Positions 1 to 15,511 are shown, counted from the stretch's first letter. The stretch: DNA of 64,000 nucleotides from Anaerolineales bacterium UBA6092 (GCA_002428565.1 DIXA01000036.1:5321-69320), one strand, 5' to 3'. Numbers and translations: made by a program. Notes: generated from the letters alone by a model not told the origin.

Positions 1-252
1 ACCGGCGGGCTGGATGATACCGTTCAGCAGTATAATGAAGGCAAAGGCACTGGCACCGGCTTTAAGTTTTGGGAGCCCAGCGCCGCGGCCATCTATTACA
101 CCATCGGCTGGGCAGTGAGCACCTATTATGACCGCAAAGCGCACATGGCCAAGATGATCCAGACCGCCATGGCGCAAGATTTTTCGTGGAAGCGCAGCGC
201 CCGCCAGTACCTGGACCTGTACGCTCAGGCGCAAGCGGTCAAGGGCCGTTGA
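1..252 (+). CDS. glgA: glycogen/starch synthase, C-terminal end (5' part lies outside the window)
   Basis: Frame 1 is open from the window edge to TGA at 250-252. It reads TGGLDDTV..GTGFKFWE..DFSWKRSARQYLDLYAQ, the conserved C-terminal block of GlgA-type glycosyltransferases. It is absent from the ORF track because it has no start codon. Confidence 0.7.
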   Translation, partial: TGGLDDTVQQYNEGKGTGTGFKFWEPSAAAIYYTIGWAVSTYYDRKAHMAKMIQTAMAQDFSWKRSARQYLDLYAQAQAVKGR

Positions 253-303
253 ATCCCGCTTTCCAGCCGCGCTCGGCGGGCGGGGCCAGATTGTGATTAG
301 GAG

Positions 304-1458
304 GTGGCTATGTCTACGCAAACCCCATCTAGTAAAAAATCGGGTTCAGGCTGCCTGAAGATTGTGGCAGTGCTGGTGGCGGTGCTGCTGGTTCTGGCGC
401 TGCCGTTGTGTTTATTCTTCTTCGACCTGGGCCAGGCGGTGTTCAACGTGCCGCTGGTCAAGGGCATTGTCACCGACGAGGTGGTGAACTCTGACCTGAT
501 CCCCGCCGCGCTGGAGTGGCTCTCAGACCGCCGCGCCCAGGAGCGTGTGGAGAGCGGCGAGGCGCTAACGGGCATCACCGAGCCGGACGTGGTCTTGCTG
601 ATGTCTTTCCTGGATGCCAGCGACTGGCGGCAGATCAAGCAAGAGGTGCTGACCGACGCGATCCTGACCGATTGGACCTCGGTGACGGTGGACGGCGTGT
701 ATGCCTGGATAGACACGCAAGAGCGCAACCCGCAGGTCGCCTGGAGCATGCAGGCTTTCAAGGAGCGGGTCAACTCAGAGCACGGCACCAACTCGATTGT
801 TATTGCCTTCAAAAAGCTGGAGCCTTGCGAGCAGAGCCAGATCGCCGATTTCCAGGCCCGGCTGGCAGCTGCCCCGCAGGGCACGGAGGTGCTGTATAAC
901 CTGTGCAACTTCCCCGACCCCTGGCACGAAGACCAGTTCCAGGATTACCTGGACGCGCTGACAGATGTGGTCAAGAACGTGCCCGATTCGTTCAACCTGA
1001 CCGAGGAACTCTTGCAGGTGGAAGATGCGGCGGGCGGGGTAGGACCCGAGGCGCTGAAGGGCTTGCTGCGCAATATCCGCACGCTGGCGGGGCTGGCCTG
1101 GCTGGTGCCGTTGGTGCTGGCGCTGCTGCTGCTGGTGCTGGCGGTGCGCTCGCTGGATACCCTGGGGCGCTGGCTGGGCTCGCCGCTGCTGGTGGGCGGG
1201 GCGCTGACCCTGCTGCCGGCGCTGGTCTACCGCGCCCTGATCACCAATCTGCTCATCTCTGGCCCGCTCAGCGAGGCGCCCGAATTGATCCGCACGGAGG
1301 CCACACGGGCCATCCTGCGCCTGGCAGCCGAAGTGTTCCGTCCGCTGATGTTCCAGGCCCTGGTGATCCTGGTGGTGGGGCTGGTGCTGGTGGTGCTGAC
1401 ACTGGTTCTGGGCCGCAAACAGAAACGATCTACAGCCGAGGTTTTCAATGAAGGGTGA
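304..1458 (+). CDS. hypothetical membrane protein
   Basis: 384-aa ORF with an N-terminal TM segment (LKIVAVLVAVLLVLALPLCLFFF) and C-terminal TM segments. GGAGG lies just upstream of the ATG. No recognisable catalytic motif. Confidence 0.6.
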   Translation: MAMSTQTPSSKKSGSGCLKIVAVLVAVLLVLALPLCLFFFDLGQAVFNVPLVKGIVTDEVVNSDLIPAALEWLSDRRAQERVESGEALTGITEPDVVLLMSFLDASDWRQIKQEVLTDAILTDWTSVTVDGVYAWIDTQERNPQVAWSMQAFKERVNSEHGTNSIVIAFKKLEPCEQSQIADFQARLAAAPQGTEVLYNLCNFPDPWHEDQFQDYLDALTDVVKNVPDSFNLTEELLQVEDAAGGVGPEALKGLLRNIRTLAGLAWLVPLVLALLLLVLAVRSLDTLGRWLGSPLLVGGALTLLPALVYRALITNLLISGPLSEAPELIRTEATRAILRLAAEVFRPLMFQALVILVVGLVLVVLTLVLGRKQKRSTAEVFNEG

Positions 1459-1705
1459 TATTTACCGCCGATACCTGATCCAATTCGTTAAAGATGCCAT
1501 CCGGGAGAGCGATGGCAGCAATGCCGGGATTGCTGCCGCCCTGCAAGAGCGCTACATCCCCGAAAGAGGCCCCAAGAGCTGGTTCCTGAAGAATGCCGAG
1601 GAGCAGATCCGCGCCCTGAAAGATGCCCGCATGGCCTTCGACGAACACCGCCATTGGCCGCGCTCGCTGGTGCTTTCGCACCTGGGGCTGGACCCAGATA
1701 TTTAA
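1448..1705 (+). CDS. hypothetical small protein (85 aa)
   Basis: The ORF overlaps the upstream gene by 11 nt and ends directly at a strong terminator. No recognisable motif. Confidence 0.35.
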   Translation: MKGDIYRRYLIQFVKDAIRESDGSNAGIAAALQERYIPERGPKSWFLKNAEEQIRALKDARMAFDEHRHWPRSLVLSHLGLDPDI

Positions 1706-1761
1706 CCAAAAAAAGGGTCAGCGGCGACGCTTTGCGCCGCCGCTGACCCTTTTTTTTGGTT
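1704..1761. terminator. bidirectional intrinsic terminator
   Basis: AACCAAAAAAAGGGTCAGCGGCG...CGCCGCTGACCCTTTTTTTTGGTT forms a GC-rich stem flanked by an A-run and a T-run. It sits between convergent genes. Confidence 0.7.
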
Positions 1762-2041
1762 AAATCTGTTCGAAATGCGGCATGTTGACCACGAGGATCG
1801 TGGCGCGGTGCTCGCCGCCTTCGGCAGGGCGGCAAACCTGGCGCAGGGTCTCGATCACGCTGTCCACCTGCTCGGCTTCCATGCCGATCATCAGGGTCAC
1901 GTTGCCGTGACGCAAGAAGCCGCCCGTGCTGGCCACGCGGGTCACACGATAGCCCTGCTTGACCAGCGCCTGGAGAACATCCACATCATCTGTGTCACGC
2001 ACGATGACGATCATCAGTTTCATGGTAGTAGTTTCTTTCAT
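1760..2041 (-). CDS. PII-like cyclic-di-AMP receptor family protein (DUF970, YaaQ/DarA-like), short form
   Basis: MKLMIVIVRDTD..YRVTRVASTGGFLRHGNVTLMIG...FEQI parallels the B. subtilis DarA pattern as recalled ([32 protein letters not shown]...FHQF). The start may be the internal ATG at 2023. Confidence 0.75.
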   Translation of the reverse strand: MKETTTMKLMIVIVRDTDDVDVLQALVKQGYRVTRVASTGGFLRHGNVTLMIGMEAEQVDSVIETLRQVCRPAEGGEHRATILVVNMPHFEQI

Positions 2042-2373
2042 ATCTGCTCAAACCTTTCCACTTCAACGATGTAGACCGTTGCGCCGCCCATCTCAGCCTC
2101 AACCATTGGCAGGGGAGCCATGTTTGTCTGGATATTCAGGTGGGTGGGAAGGAATTGGCGATAGGGCTTGCAGTTCTGGCGCGCCAGTTCCAGCAGCTCA
2201 AGCAGGCGCGGGCTGCTGGTCCCCGCCATCAGGCACACGCTTTGCTCTTGCAGGATCCCGCCCAGGCTGTCAATGTGGGTGAAGTAGAATCCTGCCTGGC
2301 GCATACCCTGCTCCAGGTCGCCGGCCTGTGCGCCGCTGGTGATGATGAAGGCCAGGTGATCGATGTCTGCCAT
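2038..2373 (-). CDS. second DUF970/PII-like paralogue (divergent)
   Basis: HLAFIITSG..FYFTHIDSLGGILQEQSVCLMAG...EMGGATVYIVEVERFEQI has the same fold signature and the same C-terminal FEQI as its neighbour. It overlaps the downstream paralogue by 4 nt. Confidence 0.65.
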   Translation of the reverse strand: MADIDHLAFIITSGAQAGDLEQGMRQAGFYFTHIDSLGGILQEQSVCLMAGTSSPRLLELLELARQNCKPYRQFLPTHLNIQTNMAPLPMVEAEMGGATVYIVEVERFEQI

Positions 2374-2402
2374 AATCTCATTATACCTATTTTTTGGGAT
2401 AA

Positions 2403-3326
2403 ATGGGAAATGTGGAAAATATTCTGTTATACTCTGAGACTATGTTCAAGTTGTGGCTGGAAAAAGTGTACGAGCTGCTCAACTGCTGGAGCGGCGGTAT
2501 CCCTGAGATCATCAAGGAAACGCTGGAGGGCTTTACCCTGGCGCGGGCGGCCCAGTCCGCCGCCGGTTTGGCCTATTACGCCCTATTTTCCATGTTCCCG
2601 ATGCTGCTGCTCTTTGTGGGCGTGGGCAGTTACTTTCTCGAAGGGGAGGATGTTTCGCAGCGGGTGGTGGAATTTGTGACCCAGGCGCTGCCCATCTCCC
2701 CAGTGTTGCTGGAGGAGAATATCGACCAGGTGCTGCAGCGGCGCGGCACTTTTAGCGTGATCGGCATCATCGGCTTGCTGTGGTCAGCCACGGCGGCTTT
2801 TTCGTGGCTGGGATATCACATCAACCTGGCCTGGCCGGAGGCCAACCGGCGCAATTTTGTGCGCCAACGCCTGGTGGGACTGAGCATGGTGGGGGTGCTG
2901 GCGATTTTGTTCTTCTTTTCGCTGGTGATCTCCACGCTCGCCAAGCTCATCCCGGTTATCCAGGCGCAGTTATTCAACGGCATGGCCATTCCAGAGCCTT
3001 CCTGGGCGCGCTCTTCGCTGGTGTGGGTGCTGATCTTCCTGATGTTTGTGGCGATGTACCGCTGGATCCCGGCAACACAGGTGAGCTGGAAGGCGTCTTC
3101 CTGGGCGGCGCTGGTTGCCACCATCATGTGGCAGTTGGCCTCCTATGTCTTTACCTGGTACGTGCGCGTGGGGCTGGGGCGCTACGAGCTGATCTACGGC
3201 TCGCTGGGGGCGGTGGTGGCGCTGCTGGTGTTGGTGTACCTCATCGCCTGGATCATCCTGTTCGGCGCGCACCTGTGCGCGGCCATCACTCACCACCAGC
3301 GCCGGCGCGGTGCGATGGCGGCTTGA
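2403..3326 (+). CDS. YihY/BrkB family inner-membrane protein
   Basis: 307 aa with about 6 TM segments. The N-terminal block (AAQSAAGLAYYALFSMFPMLLL) and C-terminal block (YGSLGAVVALLVLVYLIAWIILFGA) are typical of the YihY family. The start may be the ATG at 2444. Confidence 0.8.
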   Translation: MGNVENILLYSETMFKLWLEKVYELLNCWSGGIPEIIKETLEGFTLARAAQSAAGLAYYALFSMFPMLLLFVGVGSYFLEGEDVSQRVVEFVTQALPISPVLLEENIDQVLQRRGTFSVIGIIGLLWSATAAFSWLGYHINLAWPEANRRNFVRQRLVGLSMVGVLAILFFFSLVISTLAKLIPVIQAQLFNGMAIPEPSWARSSLVWVLIFLMFVAMYRWIPATQVSWKASSWAALVATIMWQLASYVFTWYVRVGLGRYELIYGSLGAVVALLVLVYLIAWIILFGAHLCAAITHHQRRRGAMAA

Positions 3327-3363
3327 GGGCTTGCCGCTGAGGTCAACTCCTCGCAGGTATCCG

Positions 3364-3410
3364 AAAAAGAGTGTGCGCAGCAGGCTTTGCCTGCTGCGCA
3401 CACTCTTTTT
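3364..3410. terminator. bidirectional intrinsic terminator
   Basis: AAAAAGAGTGTGCGCAGCAGG-CTTTG-CCTGCTGCGCACACTCTTTTT forms a stem of about 20 bp between convergent genes. A second G/C hairpin follows at about 3417-3448. Confidence 0.75.
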
Positions 3411-3446
3411 CGAAAAACCCCCTGCCCCGATTTTGGGGGAGGGGGT

Positions 3447-4376
3447 TTATATACCCGCACTATGTGCGATATGGATGTAGCGGCTCAGCTCAGGGCGTTT
3501 GCGCACCTTTAACACCTGGATGCTCCCGTAACCGGCCTCTTCCAGCCAGGCGGAGATGTCCTGTTCAGCCAGGTACACCGCTCGGGGGGCCAGGCTGGTC
3601 AGGCGGCGGAAGATCGGCAGCAGGCCGGGCAGGTCCTGCTCCAAAGAGCGCCCATACGGCAGGTCGGTGACGATCACATCGGCGCTGCGGCTGGTCTCCC
3701 GCGCGTCCAGGCGCTCCACGTGGGGCGGCAGGCCGAAGTGGGCCAGGTTGCGGCACGACATGTGCACCATCTTGGGGTTGTGGTCGGCGCCCCAGGCTGG
3801 CACACCGATGGCGGCTGCCTCCAGCAGGATGGAGCCGGTGCCGCAGAAGGGATCCAGCAGGCTGCTGGCGGGCGGGCAAACCAGGTTGACCAGCCCGCGT
3901 GACAGGCGCGAGGAGAGCGAGCTGGAGGTGCGGTAAGGCTTGGCATCGTGGAGGCGGAAAGAAGCCCTTGTTTCGCTGAGGATCTCACCCAGCCACAGCC
4001 CGCTGGCCTGGGCGACGATGAGGAAACGGTGGCTGGGCGCATCCAGGTTGGGATAGGCGTTCAGGGCGTCTGCCACGGTGCGGATGGCGCGTGTTTTGCT
4101 CTCTGGCGGCGTGCCGGAGAGGTACACGAAACCGAGCTGGAAATCCTCGGCGGGGATGGGCTGGGCAGCCACAGCCTGGGCCAGCGCCTCCAGCGTGGGG
4201 GCCTGGGCCAGGCAGCGCAGCCCTGCCGTCACGTAAGCGGCGCGGGGGATCAGATCGACGCTCTGGCAGATTGCCACGCCGTCGCCGTCCGGCCAGCCGC
4301 CGGTGAGGTTGGCGCACTCGGCCGCGACCAGCTCGTTGCCCGGTATGCGGGCGCATAATGCTCGCAGGTCACTCAT
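3447..4376 (-). CDS. SAM-dependent methyltransferase (UPF0020/Trm11-RlmL-like, N6-A/N2-G class)
   Basis: Motif I is LLDPFCGTGSILLEAA and motif IV is VTDLPYG. The start was moved to ATG 4376 (MSDLRAL...) because the longer ORF would read through a perfect 21-bp hairpin. Confidence 0.7.
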   Translation of the reverse strand: MSDLRALCARIPGNELVAAECANLTGGWPDGDGVAICQSVDLIPRAAYVTAGLRCLAQAPTLEALAQAVAAQPIPAEDFQLGFVYLSGTPPESKTRAIRTVADALNAYPNLDAPSHRFLIVAQASGLWLGEILSETRASFRLHDAKPYRTSSSLSSRLSRGLVNLVCPPASSLLDPFCGTGSILLEAAAIGVPAWGADHNPKMVHMSCRNLAHFGLPPHVERLDARETSRSADVIVTDLPYGRSLEQDLPGLLPIFRRLTSLAPRAVYLAEQDISAWLEEAGYGSIQVLKVRKRPELSRYIHIAHSAGI

Positions 4377-4401
4377 ACCGTGTATTATAGCCGTTCTATC
4401 C

Positions 4402-4447
4402 TTAAATCGTGATGGGTGGCGCATCAGCGCCACCCATCACGATTTAA
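4402..4447. other. perfect 21-bp-stem hairpin (4-nt loop)
   Basis: TTAAATCGTGATGGGTGGCGC-ATCA-GCGCCACCCATCACGATTTAA. No U-tract follows on either strand. It abuts the structured intergenic element. Confidence 0.6.
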
Positions 4448-4452
4448 ATGAT

Positions 4453-5070
4453 AAAAGCACTCTTCGGCTGGTGTGGCAATCATGGCCCTGATCGGGATCT
4501 GATCCGGTCCGCATTCGTTCAGAAGTTTACCGTTCCTTTGACTTTCCTTCCCAGTGATATTTTGCTGGTGAGGATCGTCTACCCCAGGTTGCCCCTGTGG
4601 TTTCGGTTTTCGCCGAGACAGGGTTTCCCGACCTGGCAGACCGTTCTGCCTTTGGGTTGGAGTGCGGTTGAACTGGCTGGCATGCACTGCCAGGGGAAAG
4701 CCAGTTCTCCTTCTGTCCGTTTTTAGGCTTTAGACCCATCACTTTGCGTCGCCGGTTTTCGCCGGTTTTGCCTTTTCGGATGGTGTGGCTGCCCTGGCTT
4801 TTCCGTTGGATGTTTCTGGCCATCGTCGTTCGCGTGCAAACGTCTGGGTGGCACACATCGTTCGGATTATGCGGTTTCTGGCATGCTTGTGCCAGAATAA
4901 GTACCGCTCGCTTTAGGCCCAATCACTCTGTGCCCCTGGCTTTCGCCAGGTTTGCTATTGTCGGAGGCCTGGCAGTCATGGCCTGGGCAGGGGTGTTTAC
5001 CTGCTTGCGCTTTAGACCCATAGCTTTGCGTCGCCGGTTTTCACCGGTTTTGCGTTTTCGGAGTGCTTTT
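4453..5070. ncRNA. candidate large structured RNA or MITE-like element (strand unresolved)
   Basis: The divergent intergenic region (about 850 nt) has no credible ORF. A 10-bp helix joins its ends (4453 AAAAGCACTC / 5061 GAGTGCTTTT). Three homologous modules lie at 4727-4780, 4910-4965 and 5009-5062. There are at least 8 local hairpins, including CCTGGC-TTTC-GCCAGG, three CTGGCA..TGCCAG stems and a nested AACTGGC...GCCAGTT stem. Confidence 0.35.
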
Positions 5071-5177
5071 TTTACGGAACTATTGAATTTGTAAGGTGCG
5101 GTTGTGGTAATTACAACGTAGCATAATAACGACCGCGAGTCAAGTGAGATTTTTTCAGTTATGCGCAATCCAGAATA

Positions 5178-5213
5178 AGCCGAAAAGCAGTGTGAGCGCA
5201 CTGCTTTTCGGCT
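5178..5213. other. perfect 15-bp-stem hairpin upstream of the kinase gene
   Basis: AGCCGAAAAGCAGTG-TGAGCG-CACTGCTTTTCGGCT ends 12 nt before the ATG at 5226. It could be a regulatory or boundary structure. Confidence 0.5.
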
Positions 5214-5225
5214 ATACTAGGGGGC

Positions 5226-6221
5226 ATGAAACCTTATGCGACATTGACCGAGCGCGGCCGGGCCCGCCGCCTGCGGGCGCTGGCCTCTCAAGCCCTGCAG
5301 CAGTACGATCTGCAAGTGGCCCGCCTGCGGCTGGTGACGAACAGCTTTAACGGCATTTTTCGGGTGGATACCACCGGCGGGGAGAAGTGGATCTTACGCG
5401 TGACACTGCCCGAGGGCGGGCACACGCCAGCGCACGTAGCCGCCGAGATGGATTGGCTGGCGGCCCTGGCGCATGATACCAGCCTGAGCGTGCCGTGCCC
5501 TCTGCCCGCCCGGGATGGCTCGTTGGTGGTGGAAGCCTGCACCGAGGGTGTGCCCGAGCCGCGCCTGTGCGAGGTGTTCAGCTGGGTGCCAGGCACCGAT
5601 CTGGCCGACCACCTCACTCCGGCCAGCATGGCAGCCCTGGGCGAACTGAGCGCCCGCCTGCACGAGCACGCCCGCAGCTACCATCCCCCGGCTGGCCTGG
5701 ATCTGTTGAGGTTTGACCGCGTCTTCCCCTTCCCCGAGCCGGTGATCCTGTTCGATGCCGGGGTGGAAGCCATTTTCAGCCCCGCCCAACACGCCCTGAT
5801 CCGGCAGGCGCGCGATTTTGCCCAGGCAGCCATCCACCGCCTGCAAGCCAGCGGCGAGCCCATGCGCCTCATCCACGGCGATCTGCACCAGTGGAACGTG
5901 CGCTATGCCCGCGGCCTGCTCTCGCCGATTGACTTTGAAGACCTGATGTGGGGCTGGCCGGTGCAGGATATTGCCACCACGCTGTATTACTTTGAAGATC
6001 GCCTGGATTACGCCGCCCTGCGGCAGGCCTTTGAGCAGGGCTACCGGCGGGCCTGCCCCTGGCCTGAGCGCGGCCCCGGCGAGATCAACGCCTTCATCGC
6101 GGCGCGTGCCCTGGGCATGGCCAATTTCATCCTGCAAAACAACGCCCTGCTCGATATTGACCTGGCGGCCTTCGCTGGCAGGCTGGAAAGCCTGCTGAAG
6201 CGATCGATGGCGGGGTTTTAA
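5226..6221 (+). CDS. phosphotransferase family protein (APH / homoserine-kinase type II fold)
   Basis: Catalytic loop LIHGDLHQWNV (HGDxHxxN), followed by IDFEDL. AGGGGG RBS lies upstream. Confidence 0.8.
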   Translation: MKPYATLTERGRARRLRALASQALQQYDLQVARLRLVTNSFNGIFRVDTTGGEKWILRVTLPEGGHTPAHVAAEMDWLAALAHDTSLSVPCPLPARDGSLVVEACTEGVPEPRLCEVFSWVPGTDLADHLTPASMAALGELSARLHEHARSYHPPAGLDLLRFDRVFPFPEPVILFDAGVEAIFSPAQHALIRQARDFAQAAIHRLQASGEPMRLIHGDLHQWNVRYARGLLSPIDFEDLMWGWPVQDIATTLYYFEDRLDYAALRQAFEQGYRRACPWPERGPGEINAFIAARALGMANFILQNNALLDIDLAAFAGRLESLLKRSMAGF

Positions 6222-6374
6222 CCAGAACGGGGTTCGGGATGAACCTCCTTCCCGCTTCTCAGGTATATCAGACAGGCACTTACGTTGCCGTCTGTTGCAC
6301 GAAGTAACATTGCAAAACATAGGGTTAGCTTGCCAGGTAGCCCGTTAAAAACAGGGAGTATTCTCACAGGGAGC

Positions 6375-7343
6375 ATGTGCAAAATGAAGACTTTCGCAAC
6401 TTATACGGAAATGCGCCAAAGAATTGGTGAATTATTCCAGCAGAGCCAGCATGCCGAAGCCGCCGAGATACTGACATGGGGCCTGGGGCAGTTCCCAGAT
6501 AAGCTACTGGCCAATGTCTACAACCTGGCAGCTTGCCAGGTATTGCTGGGGCAGGCAGAGGAGGCCGTGAAGACGCTGCATTATGGCTTAGATCATGGCG
6601 TCTGGTTCAGCCAGTGGGATCTCGAAGGCGATCTTTGGCAGCCTTTGAAGGATTTAGAAGCTTTCCAGCGCGTTCGCGAGCGCTCTGTGGAATGTAAGGA
6701 AGCAGCTCAGAAGCAATCCAGGCCCGAATTGACCATCGTGCCTCCCCAGGAATACGACCCAGCCAGGAAATATCCGCTTTTCATCGCTTTGCATGGCGGC
6801 GACGAAACCGTTGCAGACCTCCGACCGCACTGGGTTTCACCCAGGTTGAAAAACGAGTTCATCGTTGCTTATCCCCAGTCAGGCCGGGTGGTTTCGATGA
6901 AGGGGTTCAGCTGGATGGGTGATGAACAGGATCGGCAGGAAATCTTGTCTGCGTACCAGGCAGTGTTGAAAGCGTATCGCGTGGATAAGGAGCGGATCAT
7001 TGTCGGAGGGTTTTCGGCCGGGGGACACATGACCCTGACTCTGCTACTGGATGAGCAGGAAATTCTGCCGATCCGAGGGTTTGTTGTGCTCTGCCCATCC
7101 GCGCCCGAGAGCTATCCGCCCCAGGCCATTGCCCGTATCCGCGCCCGTGGGCAGAGGGGGTTATTACTCACCACAGAAATGGACCCGCGTTTGGATGACC
7201 AACGCAAGGTGGCAGAGGCATTCCAAGCCGGGGGTGTGGCGTGTCAATTCATCATCACGCCCAATGTTGGGCACTGGTATCCACCAGATTTGGCGGAGAG
7301 AATTGATGCCGCCATCCAGACAATCTTTGAGCCACAGGCCTAA
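6375..7343 (+). CDS. alpha/beta hydrolase (carboxylesterase/dienelactone-hydrolase type) with helical N-terminal domain
   Basis: Nucleophile elbow GGFSAGGHM and C-terminal His (VGHWYP). The start was set at ATG 6375, preceded by AGGGAG. Confidence 0.75.
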   Translation: MCKMKTFATYTEMRQRIGELFQQSQHAEAAEILTWGLGQFPDKLLANVYNLAACQVLLGQAEEAVKTLHYGLDHGVWFSQWDLEGDLWQPLKDLEAFQRVRERSVECKEAAQKQSRPELTIVPPQEYDPARKYPLFIALHGGDETVADLRPHWVSPRLKNEFIVAYPQSGRVVSMKGFSWMGDEQDRQEILSAYQAVLKAYRVDKERIIVGGFSAGGHMTLTLLLDEQEILPIRGFVVLCPSAPESYPPQAIARIRARGQRGLLLTTEMDPRLDDQRKVAEAFQAGGVACQFIITPNVGHWYPPDLAERIDAAIQTIFEPQA

Positions 7344-7509
7344 GATCTCATAATGGGCCTGGCCGCCTCGATCCGAAGGTATCTGGCGCACCGGCCCAGG
7401 CGATCGAAGCGGGCCCCCCTACATCCATTCATGGTAGACTACGGATGGCTACATTCAAGGAGCAATACTGAGGGGCATAGAGATACTACATAATGAATGG
7501 AGAGTAGCT

Positions 7510-8166
7510 ATGAGAGGCGACCTTCAATTTCCACCGTTAACAAATAACGAATTCAAATCCCAGGCAATGCCAAGCTTTTTAGAAGTATTCAACCTCCCTT
7601 GTCCATTTGTAGCGCCATTTACTCCCCGAATGGCTTCAAGAATAGTAATTTACTGCGAAGTATACCCACATGCAGAGCTGCTTGACCCGATCATTGAAGT
7701 CGCATCAAACATGGGTGACAAGGGTTTCTATTTTGCATTTACTGAGGAATACAATGTAGATGGAATATGGTATCTATGTTATCCTGGTTTGTCAGGAAAA
7801 GAGTTATATCTCAAAACCTGGTTTATTCCATTCGATAAAGTCAAGGATTACCAGGGACAAACATTTTTAACAAATCATGTTTTGTATTCACCCCAGGGAA
7901 AATGGGGCCTTTATATGAGTACTGAACACTTCTTACTGATCGGTGGTATCCCGGAATTTGTAAGTAAGATTAAGCAACGAATTCCAAACCTAGACGAGTT
8001 GACCCATCAATTTCTTGAAGATCAGAAGTGGAGGCACTTATTCTTACATTCCGGAATCGAATGGGTACCTAAATTCCTCGATCATGTGTATGGATCTGAG
8101 ATTACACAGCGCTTATTGGACGAACACGGCCTGAATGATACTTTGCAAGGCAAAATCACCAAATGA
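7510..8166 (+). CDS. hypothetical protein, compositional outlier
   Basis: 218-aa ORF. The local 60-nt spot count is about 35% GC, against about 65% in neighbouring genes. No recognisable motif. Confidence 0.5.
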   Translation: MRGDLQFPPLTNNEFKSQAMPSFLEVFNLPCPFVAPFTPRMASRIVIYCEVYPHAELLDPIIEVASNMGDKGFYFAFTEEYNVDGIWYLCYPGLSGKELYLKTWFIPFDKVKDYQGQTFLTNHVLYSPQGKWGLYMSTEHFLLIGGIPEFVSKIKQRIPNLDELTHQFLEDQKWRHLFLHSGIEWVPKFLDHVYGSEITQRLLDEHGLNDTLQGKITK

Positions 8167-8429
8167 AAGCCGAACCAACGGGGAACCCAGCCCACCCACC
8201 TTCCGTTGACGGGGAGTTTTGATTACACCCAAAATTTGACCGCAAAAATACCCTGGTCAACCCGAAGTGCTACTTCAAAAAAAGTGCGCGGAAAAAGCGC
8301 CACCCACTATTCCAATGCCGCCACGACGACTACCACTTTTAAACTGAACTGACGACTGGGGACAGGTCGGTCTTTCACTCAACCTGTGTCCCCACCTGTC
8401 ACACCGTGTCATAAAACCTGTTTCCGCCA

Positions 8430-8458
8430 TTGACAAGTTGCTCCAACCCCTCTAAACT
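8430..8458 (+). promoter_or_regulatory. putative sigma70-type promoter giving a leaderless or near-leaderless comM mRNA
   Basis: TTGACA (8430-8435), a 17-nt spacer, then TAAACT (8453-8458). The comM ATG is at 8465 and there is no Shine-Dalgarno sequence between them. Confidence 0.4.
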
Positions 8459-8464
8459 TATCTC

Positions 8465-10042
8465 ATGCTCTCTCGCGTTCACTCTTGTGCAGTCATCGGC
8501 CTGGAAGGGGTCATCGTCGAGGTAGAAGTGGATACCGCTGACGGCCTGCCGGGCATCACCATCGTCGGGCTGCCGGATGCCGCCGTGCAGGAAGCGCGCG
8601 AGCGCGTCCAGGCGGCCATCAAGAACACGCATCTGCCCTACCCGCGCAAGCGCATCGTGGTCAACCTGGCCCCGGCTTCGGTGCGCAAAGAAGGCCCCAC
8701 CTACGATCTGCCCATCGCCCTGGGGGTACTGATCATGACCGGGCACATCCCGCAGGAGGCGGTGGACGGTGCGCTGGTGGTGGGCGAGCTTTCGCTGGAT
8801 GGCAGCGTGCGCCATGCGCGCGGTGTGCTGCCCATGGCAGCTACCGCCCGCCAGGAAGGCTTCCGGCGCATCTTCGTCCCCGAAGCCGATGCCGCCGAGG
8901 CGGCCCTGATCCCCGACCTGGAAGTGATCCCGGTGGCTTCGCTGGCGGGGCTGCACGCCCACCTCACCGGGACCGCCCGCATCGCCCCGCGTGACCCAAT
9001 CACCCCCGACGAACTGCCGGTCATCACGCAGACGGATTTCCGCGAGATCAAAGGGCAAGAGCACGTCAAGCGCGCCATGGAGGTGGCGGGCGCGGGTGGA
9101 CACAATATGCTCATGGTTGGCCCGCCCGGTTCAGGCAAAACGCTGCTGGCGCGGGCCATGCCGGGCATTTTGCCCAAGATGACGATTGACGAAGCCCTGG
9201 ATGTGACCCGCATCTACTCGGTGGCTGACCAACTGCCGCCGGATACCCCGCTGATCCAAAACCGCCCCTTCCGTTCCCCGCACCACACCATCAGCCACGC
9301 CGGGCTGGTGGGCGGCGGCAATCAGCCGCATCCTGGCGAGATCAGCCTGGCGCACCGCGGCGTGCTCTTTTTGGATGAGCTGCCCGAGTTTGGCATGCGT
9401 GTGCTGGAAGTGCTGCGCCAACCCATGGAAGACAAGGTGGTGACGATCAGCCGGGCGCAGGGTTCACTGACCTTCCCGGCCAATTTCCAGTTGATCGGCG
9501 CCATGAACCCCTGTCCTTGCGGTTATTTCAATGACGCCATCAAGCCCTGCACCTGCTCCTCCAGCACCGTCACCAAGTACCAGAAGCGCATCTCTGGGCC
9601 GCTGCTGGACCGCATTGATATCCACATCGAGGTGCCGCGGGTCGAATACGACAAGCTCAGCGACAGCCGTTTTGGCGAATCTTCGGCGGTGATCCAGGCG
9701 CGTGTCGAGGCGGCGCGGCAGTGCCAGCGCGAGCGTTTTTCCGTCGGGGCGAAGCATTCGCCGCATGACGCCACGCCAGACAGAACCTCTCTGGCGAATG
9801 CTTCGCCGGTACAATGCAATGCCGATATGCGCCCGGCGGAGGTGCGATCGTTCTGCGATCTGGATGATACCAGCCGCAGCCTGATGAAGACGGCGATGAA
9901 CCAGTTGCAGCTCAGTGCGCGGGCGTATCACCGGATATTGAAATTGGCGCGCACGATCGCAGATTTAGCGGGGAGTGAAACGATTGGCCCCAGCCATTTG
10001 GCGGAGGCGCTGCAGTATCGTCCGCGGGGGATGATGGGGTGA
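8465..10042 (+). CDS. comM: Mg-chelatase-like AAA+ helicase ComM/YifB
   Basis: N-terminal Lon-protease-like domain (HSCAVIGLEGVIVEVEVD). Walker A GPPGSGKT, Walker B VLFLDE, Zn-like CPCGY..C.C, and C-terminal [18 protein letters not shown]. Confidence 0.9.
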   Translation: MLSRVHSCAVIGLEGVIVEVEVDTADGLPGITIVGLPDAAVQEARERVQAAIKNTHLPYPRKRIVVNLAPASVRKEGPTYDLPIALGVLIMTGHIPQEAVDGALVVGELSLDGSVRHARGVLPMAATARQEGFRRIFVPEADAAEAALIPDLEVIPVASLAGLHAHLTGTARIAPRDPITPDELPVITQTDFREIKGQEHVKRAMEVAGAGGHNMLMVGPPGSGKTLLARAMPGILPKMTIDEALDVTRIYSVADQLPPDTPLIQNRPFRSPHHTISHAGLVGGGNQPHPGEISLAHRGVLFLDELPEFGMRVLEVLRQPMEDKVVTISRAQGSLTFPANFQLIGAMNPCPCGYFNDAIKPCTCSSSTVTKYQKRISGPLLDRIDIHIEVPRVEYDKLSDSRFGESSAVIQARVEAARQCQRERFSVGAKHSPHDATPDRTSLANASPVQCNADMRPAEVRSFCDLDDTSRSLMKTAMNQLQLSARAYHRILKLARTIADLAGSETIGPSHLAEALQYRPRGMMG

Positions 10043-10055
10043 CCCATGTGCGCCG

Positions 10056-10122
10056 CAGTATTTGATCAAAGCGATGTTCGAAAAAGATTGCGCCGCGGCG
10101 GTGTGCATGGGGTTAGGGCACC
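10056..10122 (+). repeat. short copy (S1) of the junction repeat family
   Basis: CAGTATTTGATCAAAGCGATGTTCGAAAAAGATTGCGCCGCGGCGGTGTGCATGGGG... starts 14 nt after the comM stop. It matches the right end of L1, L2 and L3. Confidence 0.7.
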
Positions 10123-10179
10123 ATAAGAGGGGGGTGTGGGCTGCTGCTATCGACAGGGTTGTCCCCTTTTTGCTTCGAT

Positions 10180-10980
10180 TTATTGCACGTGATACATTTT
10201 CCAACTGCGGCGCGGGGTGTAGCCCAATTTTAGCGCCAGGCGCATGGAGATGTCGTTGGCAGCATCCCATTGGGGCTCGAGGCCATTTTCCAGGCAGTAT
10301 TCAAGCAGGGCAACACTCAACTGCGTCCCCAGGCCCTTTTGGCGATGGCGTGGATCATCGTTATAATCCACCCGAATATACACCTCCAGGACATTGTTAC
10401 GGATAGGGTAGTTCGCGGCAGCAAAGCCAATGATTTTTTCGTCTTCCAATAGGCAGAAACCGGCCCCTTGCTGTAAAAAGTCTGCCAAGGCAAAAAACTT
10501 GCTGAGCAAATCTTGAGATAACATGCCTTGCTGATCATTGACGTGGGACGCTTCAATCGGAACTATGCGCAAGCCGGCAGGCAGCTCAGTTTTCAGGCTG
10601 CGCAGGTGCTCCAGGCTGAGTGAAGATGCATCGAAGCTGGTGCGCGGGCAGGCTTGCAGTTTTTCACCAAAATAAGCCACAAGATGGCGCTCCCATTGTT
10701 CGCTGGAGGGTACCAGCCATCGATCCGCGAGAATCAGTTCGAGCAAGGGGGTCACATCTTTGGTATCGGGGTCTCCCCACAGAAAATAGGCCGGGGGCGT
10801 ATAAAAACTGGCCAGGGTTGGTTCAATTTCCGTATCCACCCAAATTTCGGGAGTGAGAAACTCAAAGGCAAATTGGATATAGTTGGTGAAGTGTTCAAAT
10901 TGATTGAACACGGCCTGATATGTGGAGTTTTTGGCCTGCGCCACTTTAACGAACGGGGTCGGTGCTGTAATGCTCATCAT
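10180..10980 (-). CDS. GNAT family N-acetyltransferase
   Basis: The C-terminal acetyl-CoA pocket region (RRQKGLGTQL, in the Q/RxxGxG/A style) sits within a GNAT-length domain. Confidence 0.7.
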   Translation of the reverse strand: MMSITAPTPFVKVAQAKNSTYQAVFNQFEHFTNYIQFAFEFLTPEIWVDTEIEPTLASFYTPPAYFLWGDPDTKDVTPLLELILADRWLVPSSEQWERHLVAYFGEKLQACPRTSFDASSLSLEHLRSLKTELPAGLRIVPIEASHVNDQQGMLSQDLLSKFFALADFLQQGAGFCLLEDEKIIGFAAANYPIRNNVLEVYIRVDYNDDPRHRQKGLGTQLSVALLEYCLENGLEPQWDAANDISMRLALKLGYTPRRSWKMYHVQ

Positions 10981-11004
10981 TTTCTCTCTTTCTGTTAGAA
11001 CGTG

Positions 11005-13143
11005 CTAAGGTTTCAGGAGGGTGATCACTTCCGTACTGACCCAGTAGAGGTCGCCTTTGTAAACGTAAAACAGGTACTTGCCATCTGGGGAGATGGTTGC
11101 AATCGACGCGCTGGTGGGGATACCCTGGCGCTGTAAACTTTTAGGGGCGCTCCAGCCTCCATCTGCCTGGAGGAAGCGGACCCCCAGGTTGGCATTGCCA
11201 TCATCGTAGACCAGATAGCTGCCATCCGGGGCAATCGCCGGGTGGACGCCGTCGCATTGGTTTTCAAAGGCAGTAAATTGCCCATTTGCCAGTGTAACCA
11301 GGCTCAGGCTTGGCCTGCCGCTGGTGGAAAAGCTGGTGACGTAGATTTGTCCGCTTGAATCTGAGCTGACAAACATTCCCTCCCCAACATAGCGAGGCTC
11401 TGACCATCCCTCAGCGGTGCGATCTACCGCCCAAATGCCGGCATCCATGGTACTGGTTACCCCGGCAGGCGCGGGGCGGAACCAGCCAAAATAAAGGGTT
11501 TTGTTGTCGGCAGTGACGTGGGGCTCGAAGGCGGGGTAGCCAGCCGCAAAAGAAGCGGGAGCCGGGGCCGTCCAAACGCCATTGAGCAGGTGCGTCTCAT
11601 AAAGCACATTCTCTTGCCCGTCCAGGCGCCGCGTGAAATAAAGTTCTTTGCCATCCGGGGAAAAGCTGGCGGCAAACTCTGTGGCCCCTTCCATAGAGAC
11701 GATACCCGGCGCAAAGACCTGCGGTGTCAGCCCGGGTGGGGTCTGCCCCAGGTAGGCGCTCCCATTCATGCCAACATCCACTTTCATCAGGTAGATTTCA
11801 AATTGCCGGGTGAGTCGCGAACCGACCAGCAGGCAACTGCCATCATCCAGTTGCAGCCAACTGCGCAAAACATTGTGCTGTCCGGCTGGTTTAATCGTCC
11901 TTTCCCAAACCAACTGTCCACCAGCGTCTATTCTGGCGATCGAGATCAAGCCCGGCGAACGCCCAGACAGATCTTTGACCCAATCCCCAGCCGCAATATA
12001 CCCGCCGTCGGCGGTTTGGGTGACCACCATAGGGTAATCTACCATTGTGGGGTCTCCAAATTGGCTGCTCCAGACTTCATTGCCTTGCTGATCCACTTTG
12101 ATCAACAGGAAATCGACCATGGCGTGAGCCGTGTCATCGGCAGGTGCAACCGATGCGGCGATGAGATACTGGCCGTCGGCGGTGCGCAGCAGGTCAGAGG
12201 CTGAGATGGTCCCCTCTTCCCAGGTGCGCTCCCACACAATTTCACCATTCCTATCCACCTTGAGCAAGTAGGCATCGTCTCCTGGCTGCGGGAAGCGCAG
12301 GAGCGAGGCCACGACGACAAAACCGCCATCCGTTGCCTCCACGCCGCCGCTGGTCAGCAGGTTGTTCTGCCCCCCAAAGGTCTGAGACCAAACCAGGCCA
12401 CCTGCGGAGTCTACTTTGGCCAGGTAAATATTACTGCGCCCGGCATAGCCGCCATAGCCAGCCGCGCCGGGGTCGGCAACAATATCGTCAGGATCAACAA
12501 CGTTGCCCCACAGCATGAAACTGCCGTCAGCAAGGGCGCACACAGAGACCATTTCATCCAGTGTGCTGCCATAGGTGTTTGACCAGATTTCATTGCCTTG
12601 CAGGTCAACTTTGACGAGGTAGGCATCCGCGCCGCCCGCGCCAGAAGATCTGGTCATCCCGGCCAGCAGCAGGTTCCCATCGCTGGTATGGGCAATCGAG
12701 AGGCCTTCTTCGGCTTTTTCGCCGCCGTAGGTTTTCTCCCAAAGCACCTCCCCGTTTTCATCCGTGCGAATCAGGTAGATGTCGCCGCTGTTGCCTGCCC
12801 CAGACATATCCAGCCCAGCCGTGCCCACAATGTAAAAGCCGCCGTCTTCGGCCACCAGCACGTCTTCACCCATGTCGGCTGCCGTTTTGTGATAGATCCG
12901 ATCCCAGAGAATGCTCGGAATTTCGGGGGTGGGGATGGCGGTGGGTGGGAGTGTGGCAGTCGGCGGTGCGGAGGTTGCTGTGGGCGGAATCGCAGTGAGG
13001 GTCGGGGGAACTGCTGTATTGGCCGGAGGAACTGCTGTATTGGTTGGGGGAACCACTGTAGGGGTGGGGGTTGATGTCGGTGCGCAGCTGGTGAGCAGGC
13101 TCAACAAGATGACCAAAATGGCAAACTGTCTAATGTATCTCAT
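11005..13143 (-). CDS. secreted lipoprotein with beta-propeller repeats
   Basis: Lipobox LLTSC. Pro/Thr repeat linker (PTNTAVPPANTAVPPT). Repeated G..(V/I)W motifs and a TolB/PD40-like C-terminal part (SPDGK.LYF). Confidence 0.75.
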   Translation of the reverse strand: MRYIRQFAILVILLSLLTSCAPTSTPTPTVVPPTNTAVPPANTAVPPTLTAIPPTATSAPPTATLPPTAIPTPEIPSILWDRIYHKTAADMGEDVLVAEDGGFYIVGTAGLDMSGAGNSGDIYLIRTDENGEVLWEKTYGGEKAEEGLSIAHTSDGNLLLAGMTRSSGAGGADAYLVKVDLQGNEIWSNTYGSTLDEMVSVCALADGSFMLWGNVVDPDDIVADPGAAGYGGYAGRSNIYLAKVDSAGGLVWSQTFGGQNNLLTSGGVEATDGGFVVVASLLRFPQPGDDAYLLKVDRNGEIVWERTWEEGTISASDLLRTADGQYLIAASVAPADDTAHAMVDFLLIKVDQQGNEVWSSQFGDPTMVDYPMVVTQTADGGYIAAGDWVKDLSGRSPGLISIARIDAGGQLVWERTIKPAGQHNVLRSWLQLDDGSCLLVGSRLTRQFEIYLMKVDVGMNGSAYLGQTPPGLTPQVFAPGIVSMEGATEFAASFSPDGKELYFTRRLDGQENVLYETHLLNGVWTAPAPASFAAGYPAFEPHVTADNKTLYFGWFRPAPAGVTSTMDAGIWAVDRTAEGWSEPRYVGEGMFVSSDSSGQIYVTSFSTSGRPSLSLVTLANGQFTAFENQCDGVHPAIAPDGSYLVYDDGNANLGVRFLQADGGWSAPKSLQRQGIPTSASIATISPDGKYLFYVYKGDLYWVSTEVITLLKP

Positions 13144-15511
13144 GATTTCCTTTTCTCCTGATTGTTACGGCGCTGGCTGCCGGGGCGGTTGACGCAGTTG
13201 GCGCCGGCGCCCAGGTGGCCGCTGCGTCATATCCTTTGCCGTCAGTTAACGCGGTGAGCGTATCGGAGGCCAGATCGTAAACCCATAGTGTGCTTTTCGG
13301 CCAGCGATTGGAGTAAATGGAGCGGCCGGAATGGCCCGTCGAGATGAGCACTTGCTTCCCGTCCGGCGAGTATTCCAGGCCTTCCAGATATTCGGCAACT
13401 AAAGCAGTGCGCCTGAACTGGCCGGTAGATACGGTAACGAGATACAGGCTGGCATCCTGCCCATTTTTTGTCTTTCCAAAGACGGCGATCGATGTCCCAT
13501 CCGGCGACCAAACAGCAAGCTCCGGCGTGGTATCTGCTGGCAATGGGCCAACGGGGCGCGACGTGCCGTCCAGCTTCACAATCAAAACCTGCTCGGACTG
13601 TGCAGAGACAACGACAATCTCCGTCCCGTCCGGCGACCAGGCTGCCGAGAGGAGGTCGCGATATACTTCGCGGATTTCCCCGTTCGAGAGGGATAATACG
13701 TAGGCGTTATGCGCTCGGATGGACTCGTCCGGCGACACATCCTCGATCAGGATTTGCTCCCCGTTGGATGCCCATTCCACTGCACCGGCTATCCAGTCGA
13801 GTGGGAATGCTTGCTCGACGCCGCTCCCATCGCTGCGCAGGATGGTCACGACGCTGCGCTTGTCGCTTGTGCCGGCGACGGGGTGGACGGCGGCGACGGC
13901 CAGGCGCGTTCCATCGGGCGACCAGGTTGGGTCTATCCAGGGGTACGCCAACAGCGTCTCTGTGACACCCGCACTGAGTTCGATCGGCGCAGCACCATCG
14001 AGCCCCGCGCTCCAGACTTCCAGTGGACCGTGCCGGTCGCCGCTCAGGCCGTTGGGAACCACTATGTAGGCGATCCTTTGGCCGTCCGGCGACCACACCG
14101 GGCGCAGGCAGGTATCCCTTGGCTTGCCCCCCGCCAGCCAGCGTTGGTTGGAGCCATCGGCGTTCATCACATAGATCGCAGGCTTGCCATCCCGGTCGGA
14201 GAGAAAGGCGATCAGGCCGGCGCCGTTATCGCCCAGGGGCTGCGTGGTTGTCACGCTGGCGGTCGGCACCGGCGCCCAAGCGCCATGTGAGTCATATCCT
14301 TTGCCGTCGGTTAACTCGGTGAGTGTGTCGGAGGCCAGATCGTAAACCCATAGCGACCTTCTCAGCCAGCTACTGGAGTAACTGGAGCGGCCAGGATGGG
14401 CTGCCGAGACGAGCAGTTGGCTTCCGTCCGGCGAGTATTCCAGGCCGTCCAGAGATTCGGCGACCAAAGCAATGCGCCTGACCTGGCCGGTGGATACGGT
14501 AACGAGATACAGGCTGGCCTCCTGCCTATTATTTGTCGTTCCAAAGATGGCAATAGCAGTCCCATCCGGCGACCAAACGGCAAGCTCCGGCGTCGTATCT
14601 GCTGGCAATGGGCCAACGGGGCGCGATGTGCCGTCCAGCTTCACAATCAAAACCTGCTCGGACTGTGCAGAGACAACGACAATCTCCATCCCATCCGGCG
14701 ACCAGGCCGCCGAGAGTAGGTCGCGATATACTTCGCGGATTTCCCCGTTCGAGAGGGATAATACGTAGGCGTTATGCGCTCGGATGGACTCGTCCGGCGA
14801 CATATCCTCGATCAGGATTTGCTCCCCGTTGGATGCCCATTCCACTGCACCGGCTATCCAGTCGAGTGGGAATGCTTGCTCGACGCCGCTCCCATCGCTG
14901 CGCAGGATGGTCACGACGCTGCGCTTGTCGCTTGTGCCGGCGACGGGGTGGACGGCGGCGACGGCCAGGCGCGTTCCATCGGGCGACCAGGTTGGGTCTA
15001 TCCAGGGGTACGCCAGCAGCGTCTCTGTGACACCCGCACTGAGTTCAACCGGCGCAGCGCCATCGAACCCCACGCTCCAGACTTCCAGCGGACCGTGCAG
15101 GTCGCTCAGGCCGTTGGGAACCACCATGTAGGCGATCCTTTGGCCGTCCGGCGACCACACCGGGGGCAGGCAGACACCCCTTGTCTTCCCTTCCGCCAGC
15201 CGGCGTTGGTTGGAGCCATCGGCGTTCATCACATAGATCGCAGGCTTACCATCCCGGTCAGAGAGAAAGGCGATCAGGCCGGCACTGTTATCGCCGAGAG
15301 GCGGTGTGGCTGTCACGCTGGCGGTCGGCGCCGGCGTGGCCGTGGCCGTGGGCGTAGCCGTAGCCGTGGCCACGATAGGCTGGCTGGTAGGGGTGGGCAA
15401 AACGTTGGGCGCCGTGGCGGTGGATGTGGGCGCAGGGTCTGCTTTACTGCAACCAGTCACGATCATCCCTATCAGTAATATGATGAGCATTGTTCGCAAT
15501 CGATTTGGCAT
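13130..15511 (-). CDS. PD40/TolB-like beta-propeller lipoprotein containing an internal 355-aa tandem duplication
   Basis: Lipobox IVTGC. DGKPAIYVMNADGSNQR and WSPDG repeats. The two halves are near-identical. Confidence 0.8.
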   Translation of the reverse strand: MPNRLRTMLIILLIGMIVTGCSKADPAPTSTATAPNVLPTPTSQPIVATATATPTATATPAPTASVTATPPLGDNSAGLIAFLSDRDGKPAIYVMNADGSNQRRLAEGKTRGVCLPPVWSPDGQRIAYMVVPNGLSDLHGPLEVWSVGFDGAAPVELSAGVTETLLAYPWIDPTWSPDGTRLAVAAVHPVAGTSDKRSVVTILRSDGSGVEQAFPLDWIAGAVEWASNGEQILIEDMSPDESIRAHNAYVLSLSNGEIREVYRDLLSAAWSPDGMEIVVVSAQSEQVLIVKLDGTSRPVGPLPADTTPELAVWSPDGTAIAIFGTTNNRQEASLYLVTVSTGQVRRIALVAESLDGLEYSPDGSQLLVSAAHPGRSSYSSSWLRRSLWVYDLASDTLTELTDGKGYDSHGAWAPVPTASVTTTQPLGDNGAGLIAFLSDRDGKPAIYVMNADGSNQRWLAGGKPRDTCLRPVWSPDGQRIAYIVVPNGLSGDRHGPLEVWSAGLDGAAPIELSAGVTETLLAYPWIDPTWSPDGTRLAVAAVHPVAGTSDKRSVVTILRSDGSGVEQAFPLDWIAGAVEWASNGEQILIEDVSPDESIRAHNAYVLSLSNGEIREVYRDLLSAAWSPDGTEIVVVSAQSEQVLIVKLDGTSRPVGPLPADTTPELAVWSPDGTSIAVFGKTKNGQDASLYLVTVSTGQFRRTALVAEYLEGLEYSPDGKQVLISTGHSGRSIYSNRWPKSTLWVYDLASDTLTALTDGKGYDAAATWAPAPTASTAPAASAVTIRRKGNHEIH
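13226..15333. repeat. 2 x ~1065-bp direct tandem repeat inside the CDS
   Basis: The sequence at about 13226-14268 recurs at about 14291-15333. For example, the spurious ORFs starting at 13709 and 14774 are 1065 nt apart and begin with identical peptides. Long stretches are identical. Confidence 0.85.

Follow-up and report, generated by a model that had tools for sequence, protein, structure and literature searches.

An abundant RNA built from three c-di-GMP-I-type aptamers in an Anaerolineales intergenic spacer

A long intergenic spacer of Anaerolineales bacterium UBA6092 gives rise to a discrete, abundant RNA with sharp boundaries that is built from class I cyclic dimeric guanosine monophosphate (c-di-GMP-I) riboswitch aptamers. 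The stretch of DNA analysed, here called the window, comprises 64,000 nucleotides (nt) of one contig (GCA_002428565.1 DIXA01000036.1:5321-69320), and the spacer lies between a methyltransferase gene on the minus strand (3447-4376, PF01170) and a gene for an APH-family kinase on the plus strand (5226-6221). An earlier, sequence-only reading had singled out this divergent spacer for its unusual length; its position between the two genes is confirmed. We see about an even chance that the RNA is the product of a free-standing gene and binds cyclic dinucleotides, either as a buffer or sponge or as a trans-acting sensor, rather than switching the methyltransferase gene.

Identity and strand of the aptamers

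An Rfam scan of the whole 64 kilobases (kb) gave only two matches over the curated thresholds. Both were to the c-di-GMP-I family (GEMM-I, RF01051) on the minus strand, at 5064-4960 (57.5 bits, E = 1.3e-08) and at 4782-4663 (36.4 bits, against a gathering score of 35). Besides c-di-GMP-I, a permissive scan of 4300-5300 returned chance-level matches only, and no Rfam model of the known large ornate RNAs (OLE, GOLLD, ROOL, HEARO, raiA) matched there. The earlier proposal of a large ornate RNA of about 620 nt is thus borne out in that there is a discrete RNA of about 610 nt bounded by a closing helix, but not in its suggested membership of a known large-RNA family. Because the c-di-GMP-I match reads on the minus strand, we assign the RNA to that strand, which had been left open when the family was not recognised.

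The three homologous modules pointed out in the sequence-only reading are real. On the minus strand they fit a profile of the 5' half of the aptamer, at 5058-5011 (52 bits), 4962-4912 (21 bits) and 4777-4729 (51 bits), and they are the conserved 5' halves of three c-di-GMP-I aptamers, each comprising the GAAA-loop hairpin, the GACGCAAAG junction and the start of the P3 stem. Their description as three equal repeats of 55 nt holds for the homology but not for equal, complete units, as the matching 3' halves lie up to 240 nt away. We call the units A, B and C in the order of transcription. Scored with a covariance model made from 50 of the lineage's aptamers (R1), which was used beside a profile hidden Markov model (HMM), unit C reached 49 bits; the scores of units A and B are given in Table 1. 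All three units have a GNRA-capped hairpin (reading GGUGAAAACC, GGCGAAAGCC and GGCGAAAACC), GCAAA and GACGCAAAG-type junctions, and a CCGAA 3' junction, so that the hairpin, P3 and CCGAA elements of RF01051 are all present.

The units differ in the residues that contact the ligand. At position 20, unit A has C, unit B has A and unit C has G. Read across the contacts G20/A47/C92, unit A is C/A/CC and unit C is G/A/CC, and unit B combines its A with an altered GGCACAGAG and an uncertain third contact. A G or an A at position 20 selects c-di-GMP or c-AMP-GMP, respectively (PMC9481103). From their sequences, the three sites are predicted to bind cyclic dinucleotides with differing specificity, for c-di-GMP and probably for ligands resembling 3'3'-cyclic GMP-AMP (3'3'-cGAMP).

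Expression and boundaries of the RNA

Expression was followed in Logan contigs from metatranscriptomes, in which contig depth is a poor measure of expression. Identity to the region is 95-100% in contigs from wetland, sediment, estuary and soil RNA, and one contig of 347 nt is identical throughout; the 3' part of the RNA is also listed in further RNA runs, some of them from ice. When window positions 1-20000 were binned for four metatranscriptomes, appreciable coverage was found only in the two bins holding 4471-5071; all other bins were at or below 0.13. Further runs gave a similar result. Locus-specific contig depths were about 15-20 in two runs, and 90-250 and 300-900 in the other two. By our own rough estimate, assuming 150-nt reads, the RNA makes up roughly 0.1% of all bases in run X7.

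The locus-specific contigs end at 5071 on the high-coordinate side, which is flush with the closing helix and 7 nt past the sequence AATAGT (5084-5079). On the low-coordinate side they end between 4454 and 4473, and an Illumina adapter abuts 4465 and 4472/3 in two libraries. Such libraries usually under-sample the final bases of an RNA, and the contig ends are compatible with an RNA that finishes within the U tract (about 4446-4453). The ends given here are approximate, as assembled contigs may break at repeats. The same picture was obtained in four other metatranscriptomes for one of the canonical triplets described below (L036), in which the closing helix ends at position 2611 and adapter sequence joins directly onto that base. 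If the libraries were made by the deoxyuridine triphosphate (dUTP) method, the orientation of the adapters agrees with the aptamer-sense strand, which is suggestive only. The sequence GCACTCTTCGGCT (4458-4469), at the 3' end of the RNA, resembles the Illumina adapter GCTCTTCCGATCT, so that the mapped 3' end could be made less sharp by adapter trimming or by mis-assembly.

AATAGT lacks a convincing -35 box; the 18 canonical triplets described below have nAnAAT at the corresponding place. As a candidate -10 box it would fit better than the TTGACT-N17-TACGTT promoter suggested earlier (5112-5140), from which transcription would start about 30 nt upstream of the observed end at 5071. Another candidate, TTGTAA-N17-TACAAA, was rejected, its predicted start also being upstream of the observed 5' end.

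In relatives, contigs that continue past the positions corresponding to 5071 and 4454 pass from the 3' closing strand directly into a 5' closing strand and a new aptamer, the junction reading GAGUGCUU-CG-AAAAAGCACUC in run X7 and GAGUGCUUU-AAGCACUC in run X22. These junctions may represent arrays that abut directly, or else RNA joined head to tail (circular or concatemeric). The two strands would also pair locally, in a hairpin competing with the long-range helices.

Anatomy of the window RNA

The two ends of the RNA are joined by a perfect helix of 10 base pairs (bp), 4453-4462/5061-5070. A repeat search recovered this closing helix where the sequence-only reading had placed it, and the nested CTGGCA/TGCCAG stems and the GGCAGA-CCGT-TCTGCC hairpin (4635-4650) were likewise found as described. 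It also gave a 9-bp stem, AACTGGCT/AGCCAGTT, at 4670-4678/4699-4707. The minus-strand fold of 627 nt is better than 20 of 20 shuffles (z = -4.06) and keeps the closing helix in its minimum-energy structure. The last CCGAA (4467-4463) is followed directly by the closing strand 4462-4453 and then by UUUUAUCAUUU. No terminator-like sites were found between the units in a minus-strand scan.

Table 1. Features of the RNA, its flanks and related loci. Positions are those of the window.
Feature	Position	Strand or setting	Evidence and remarks
Candidate -10 box AATAGT	5084-5079	minus	7 nt upstream of the observed 5' end; read from sequence
RNA 5' end (~5071) and 5' strand of closing helix, AAAAGCACUC (5070-5061)	5061-5071	minus	contig ends, repeat search
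Unit A, complete c-di-GMP-I aptamer with C at 'G20'	4960-5064	minus	RF01051 57.5 bits; R1 79.5 bits
Unit B, variant aptamer with A20 and GGCACAGAG replacing GACGCAAAG	4783-4959	minus	R1 23.5 bits, E = 5e-06
Unit C 5' half (G20, GACGCAAAG, P3 5' strand)	4725-4782	minus	Rfam 36.4 bits; nhmmer 50.6 bits
Hairpin-rich insertion of 236 nt at the apex of unit C P3	4489-4724	minus	run X22 contig with an 11-nt loop instead
Unit C 3' half, GGGC-CAU-GAUU-GCCA-CAC-CAG-CCGAA	4463-4488	minus	3'-half profile match 4487-4474
3' strand of closing helix, GAGUGCUUUU (4462-4453), and U-rich UUUUAUCAUUU	4446-4462	minus	repeat search; putative long-range terminator and RNA end
Perfect 21-bp hairpin	4402-4422/4427-4447	between RNA and methyltransferase start	repeat search
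Perfect 15-bp hairpin, AGCCGAAAAGCAGTG / CACTGCTTTTCGGCT	5178-5192/5199-5213		repeat search
Triplet loci of other genomes			L005, L007, L011 (twice), L012-L014, L016, L023, L024, L028, L033, L034, L036, L039, L040, L042, L044, L048

All three P3 stems carry insertions, of about 26 nt in unit A, about 100 nt in unit B and 236 nt in unit C. The last of these separates the two halves of unit C. A local search with the 3'-half profile matched 4487-4474 (E = 0.0017), and this piece is part of the 3' half of unit C rather than of a fourth unit. When the 5' half was joined in silico to 4488-4463, the score was 58.2 bits over profile positions 4-82, compared to 48 bits for the contiguous stretch. Read from the sequence, all 11 P3 pairs of the joined halves are standard (4742-4740 with 4473-4471, 4736-4733 with 4481-4478, and 4728-4725 with 4488-4485). 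The 3' half that Rfam chose for unit C, at about 4690-4663, leaves several mismatched pairs and was rejected, 4488-4463 being the true partner. Readings of 4660-4602 and of 4857-4783 as relic aptamers, and of 4541-4463 as a fourth unit, were rejected, support being confined to the 3' half at 4487-4474. Another match of the 3'-half profile, at 38464-38447, is due to chance. The inserted segment includes the nested CTGGCA/TGCCAG and GGCAGA/TCTGCC hairpins.

Unit B is the most divergent of the three. Rfam did not report it even at E <= 10, and nhmmer gave it 20.6-24.5 bits. Its 5' half (4959-4907) is solid and its P3 is imperfect, and the 3' end is ambiguous between a CCGAA at 4865-4861 and one at 4787-4783, the latter abutting unit C as in the canonical triplets. 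The GGCACAGAG variant recurs in the middle unit of L011, and related GGCACAAAG forms occur in other middle units.

A family of aptamer triplets in the Anaerolineales

The module core was searched in one genome per species (185,579 species genomes), and the loci were annotated with Rfam, R1 and the profile HMM. The scan found 45 loci, nearly all in metagenome-assembled genomes of Anaerolineales or other Anaerolineae, with one or two loci per genome. Single aptamers among them resemble ordinary riboswitches, in that 32 of 33 have G20, P1 flanks the aptamer, and a co-oriented gene mostly follows at a short distance. A second class, found at 18 or more loci (Table 1), consists of three aptamers placed back to back within about 255-270 nt, with 0-5 nt between units. 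Position 20 is A or C in about half of the triplet units, compared to 1 of 33 single riboswitches. A promoter-like sequence of the sigma-70 type, TTGAnn-N16/17-nAnAAT, is present in all 18 checkable triplets and ends 10-16 nt before the first unit.

The triplets share an outer helix, whose strands lie directly before the CGA of the first unit and directly after the CCGAA of the last (for example GCACUC/GAGUGC, GCAUCC/GGAUGC, GCACUU/AAGUGC and CAACGCUC/GAGCGUUG). In an alignment of 17 arrays, made from hand-selected flanks connected through a constant artificial linker, 81.6% of cells were paired, compared to 54.3% in shuffles, none of 500 of which reached the observed value; the arrays are mutually related, so these shuffle-based contrasts are inflated. 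All eight pairs change on both sides among the 17 arrays, and controls in which the strands were slid gave 24-49%. A U run directly follows the closing helix in L024, L034, L006, L023, L040 and L031, and at other loci a strong hairpin and U tract follow it by 8-20 nt. The window RNA is an expanded triplet, and its closing helix corresponds to the shared outer helix of this family.

The window copy is an unusually elaborated member of the family. Its exact sequence is present in public metagenome runs of a hydrocarbon enrichment, and contigs of that project share an identical spacer; the loci L001-L003 are from this same organism and, being identical in the spacer, are uninformative for comparison. 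A diverged orthologue of the 610-nt form was found neither by a genome scan with the methyltransferase protein nor by two scans of metagenome contigs with 21-22-mers. One match to such a window-specific 21-22-mer (L049) lies inside coding sequence and is a chance match.

Other regulatory elements occur near some of the family's loci. A thiamine pyrophosphate (TPP) riboswitch lies 180 nt downstream of the L034 triplet (L034 3627-3738), a cobalamin riboswitch lies beside the L029 aptamers (L029 4242-4382), and an S-adenosylmethionine (SAM) riboswitch is present in L007 (963-1062). L011 has two triplets in tandem, about 100 nt apart. A motif containing TAGAAC (for example ATAATTAGAACA) is conserved about 45-55 nt upstream of the first unit in L011, L012, L013, L039 and L048; in triplets that follow an HlyD-like gene, it lies just upstream of the -35 box. 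In the window, the TATAAT of the methyltransferase gene is likewise preceded by a GATAGAAC.

Discussion

In the interpretation that we favour, a non-coding RNA of about 610-625 nt would be transcribed from the minus strand, from about 5071 to about 4450. It carries three c-di-GMP-I-type aptamers head to tail, with no expression platform between them and with a single helix enclosing all three in the position that P1 occupies in a single aptamer. The closing helix and the U tract, with the 21-bp hairpin as a back-up, would end transcription and shield both ends of the RNA, and the shared helix probably couples the three sites. Such an RNA may bind cyclic dinucleotides in bulk, as a buffer or sponge, or may serve as a ligand-dependent sensor that acts in trans, and it would not switch the neighbouring methyltransferase gene.

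Several observations weigh against this interpretation. Action as a sponge or in trans is argued from just two things, the abundance of the RNA and the absence of a conserved cis target, and an efficiently terminated riboswitch leader would also yield an abundant short RNA with silent flanks. The methyltransferase gene is co-oriented with the RNA, its start lying 77 nt beyond the closing helix. Of the three units, C alone keeps every canonical contact, since unit A has C20 and unit B combines a changed J2/3 with a 3' half that is uncertain. The window RNA does not show the canonical promoter pattern of the family. In four triplet loci (L005, L016, L028 and L042), the 5' arm of the terminator repeats the CUGCCGA tail of the aptamer, a hint of regulated termination; overall, single riboswitches and triplets could not be told apart by whether their terminator arms copy strands of the aptamer. 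Finally, the strand and ends of the RNA were derived from assembled contigs and a few adapter junctions.

The strongest alternative is a conventional tandem riboswitch acting in cis, in which the three aptamers gate one terminator, formed by the closing helix with its U tract, by the 21-bp hairpin or by both, and thereby control read-through into the methyltransferase gene, which is of the Trm11 family, the 610-nt RNA being the terminated leader. Cis action is the normal mode of this aptamer family, the gene lies close by in the right orientation, and tandem c-di-GMP-I aptamers are common (347 doublets and 12 triplets in one survey). Structures of c-di-GMP-I aptamers indicate that ligand binding would stabilise P1. 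The closing helix sits at this position, and ligand-dependent termination would therefore be mechanistically natural. We nevertheless consider this explanation unlikely. The methyltransferase gene had a depth of 0 in four runs in which depths over the RNA reach hundreds, and the RNA contigs end before the gene. The closest relative of the methyltransferase, 64% identical, is in an Anaerolineales genome. At five orthologous loci in other Anaerolineales the spacers upstream of the gene are 13-156 nt long and hold no aptamer, so that its adjacency to the array is not conserved. The methyltransferase ATG (4376) is preceded at 7 nt by TATAAT (4391-4386) and lacks a Shine-Dalgarno sequence. This therefore suggests a start of its own, and the gene is a candidate for a leaderless mRNA with its own promoter.

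The neighbours of the triplets in other genomes also argue against control in cis, for which a conserved co-oriented downstream gene would be expected. In 7 or more triplet loci the next gene is convergent, encoding phosphoenolpyruvate (PEP) carboxylase, a molybdenum hydroxylase subunit, DUF1361 or UPF0047, and at other loci it is an unrelated housekeeping gene such as ruvB, so that the downstream genes are often convergent and never functionally coherent. Upstream, the triplets follow a gene for an HlyD-like lipoprotein or a histidine kinase. The tandem regulatory leaders suggested in the sequence-only reading were right as to the building blocks, which are riboswitch aptamers.

A second alternative, which we regard as improbable, is that the window copy is a decaying duplicate of a triplet that has gained insertions and lost ligand contacts and is still transcribed with no specific function. 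The C20 of unit A, the low score and ambiguous 3' half of unit B, the large insertions and the missing canonical promoter would all be expected of such a copy. Against this, contigs that share 97-100% identity with the window, also across the insertion, are found repeatedly and at high depth in RNA from wetland, sediment, estuary and soil, and both the 11 P3 pairs of unit C, across 236 nt, and the 10-bp closing helix, across 598 nt, are intact. Variants also differ from one another either in loops or by compensatory changes. The four changes at 4683-4686 all lie in a hairpin loop, and the stem pair 4903/4875 of unit B is U-A in the window, U.G in runs X7 and X14, and C-G in run X10 and part of run X13. 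In the region of the 236-nt insertion, strain variants show 1-nt insertions or deletions (indels) and changes confined to loops. A contig of run X22 joins the 5' half of unit C to the 4486-4454 piece through a loop of 11 nt, without the insertion. In that run, the insertion-less variant (depth about 819) coexists with contigs that carry the insertion (depth about 260-290).

Slightly less probable still is a riboswitch-gated non-coding output, in which ligand-controlled read-through would produce antisense RNA against convergent neighbours or cause transcriptional interference. Riboswitch-controlled antisense RNAs are known in other bacteria. The convergent genes of the family lie 39-148 nt downstream of the array, and the terminators of the four loci named above could engage in alternative pairing with the aptamer 3' tail that their 5' arms repeat. 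However, the downstream gene in the window is co-oriented, no coverage extends beyond the array in the window or in L036, and most terminators share nothing with the aptamers.

The idea that the spacer holds a cluster of repetitive extragenic palindromic (REP) or miniature inverted-repeat transposable element (MITE)-like repeats, raised in the sequence-only reading for its many repeated hairpins, or else a small protein gene, for which the Joint Genome Institute (JGI) gene caller offers a 92-amino-acid open reading frame (ORF) on the plus strand (4448-4726; L002 2223-2501), antisense to the aptamers, can be set aside: the modules match a curated riboswitch family, searches of the 64 kb gave no other full copy of the aptamer and other genomes have one or two loci each, and the ORF, probably a spurious call, has no Pfam hit, with a protein-coding function argued against because close, near-identical variants differ by many 1-nt indels that break any reading frame (for example at 4585, 4597, 4600, 4650 and 4848).

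The RNA shares features with several known systems. Like members of RF01051, units A and C pass the curated score and all three units have the GNRA hairpin, junctions and CCGAA of the family. In contrast, the window RNA has neither a platform for each aptamer nor a conserved downstream gene, is enclosed by one outer helix for all three aptamers, has C, A and G at position 20 and very large P3 insertions, and is a discrete abundant species. A tandem arrangement is found in one third of delta-proteobacterial GEMM copies. The Bc3-5 element of Bacillus thuringiensis is described as having three complete riboswitches in the 5' untranslated region (UTR) of cspABCDE and, like the window RNA, places three class I aptamers in a row on one transcript. 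Unlike tandem riboswitches of the Bc3-5 type, defined by a terminator or other platform after every aptamer, the canonical Anaerolineales triplets have abutting units and are closed by one helix and one terminator, with unrelated or convergent neighbours. As in c-AMP-GMP riboswitches (GEMM-Ib), position 20 is A instead of G in unit B and in many units of the triplets; in this comparison of sequences, unit B differs in also changing J2/3, and the C20 of unit A matches no assigned ligand. The tandem glycine riboswitch likewise joins several like aptamers directly and reads them out through one terminal element, but it has another ligand and another fold and lies in the 5' UTR of glycine-metabolism genes. 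CsrB and RsmZ are sponge RNAs, and CsrB binds a protein. They resemble the window RNA, as interpreted here, in being encoded by independent genes with their own promoter and terminator, in their high abundance and in their repeated binding modules; the modules of the window RNA differ in being aptamers for small molecules, for which sequestration is the predicted outcome. Taken together, the lack of a platform between units, the shared outer helix, the mixed position 20, the independence from neighbouring genes and the abundance set the family apart from known tandem c-di-GMP-I riboswitches.

More tentatively than for the window RNA itself, and at somewhat less than even confidence, we suggest that the Anaerolineae have a class of free-standing, highly expressed RNAs in which three aptamers of mixed specificity are locked by one P1 and may work as sinks, as buffers or as sensors with several inputs for c-di-GMP and messengers resembling cGAMP, the window copy having been elaborated by a grafted domain of 236 nt. 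To our knowledge, riboswitch aptamers are known almost only as cis-regulators. No account of stand-alone triplet RNAs came up in full-text literature searches, which does not prove that none exists. If our interpretation is correct, these would be independently transcribed, abundant RNAs made only of second-messenger aptamers, through which RNA could set or read cyclic-dinucleotide levels directly, as a counterpart of protein sponges and as a use of riboswitch aptamers outside cis-regulation. The triplet would be a natural three-aptamer device with a shared helix and G, A and C at position 20, and could integrate signals or respond cooperatively. In the metatranscriptomes checked from sediment, soil and wetland, it would also account for a non-ribosomal RNA signal that is among the more abundant and has the poorly studied Anaerolineae as its source. 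The naturally tolerated 236-nt insertion in P3 would be a useful guide for aptamer engineering.

Other features of the locus

The two hairpins that the sequence-only reading placed on either side of the element, of 21 and 15 bp, were recovered by the repeat search and are both perfect. The 21-bp hairpin is probably a back-up terminator or insulator, to judge from its sequence and position; no RNA contig covers it. Nine of its bases, GUGAUGGGU (4409-4417), are shared with the P3 strand of unit C (4734-4742), and its other arm could pair with the aptamer. This complementarity is at chance level, as we estimate that about 1.4 such 9-mers are expected in 850 nt.

A gene for a c-di-AMP receptor domain protein (PF06153, CdAMP_rec; 111 amino acids, 2038-2373, minus strand) adjoins a BrkB-family gene and lies about 2 kb from the RNA. 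On the other side of the RNA, the 15-bp hairpin stops 12 nt short of the ATG of the kinase gene and closely precedes the GGGGG ribosome-binding site of that gene. It is situated about 100 nt upstream of the RNA start on the opposite strand. Read on the minus strand, it is terminator-like and is followed by UUAUUCU.

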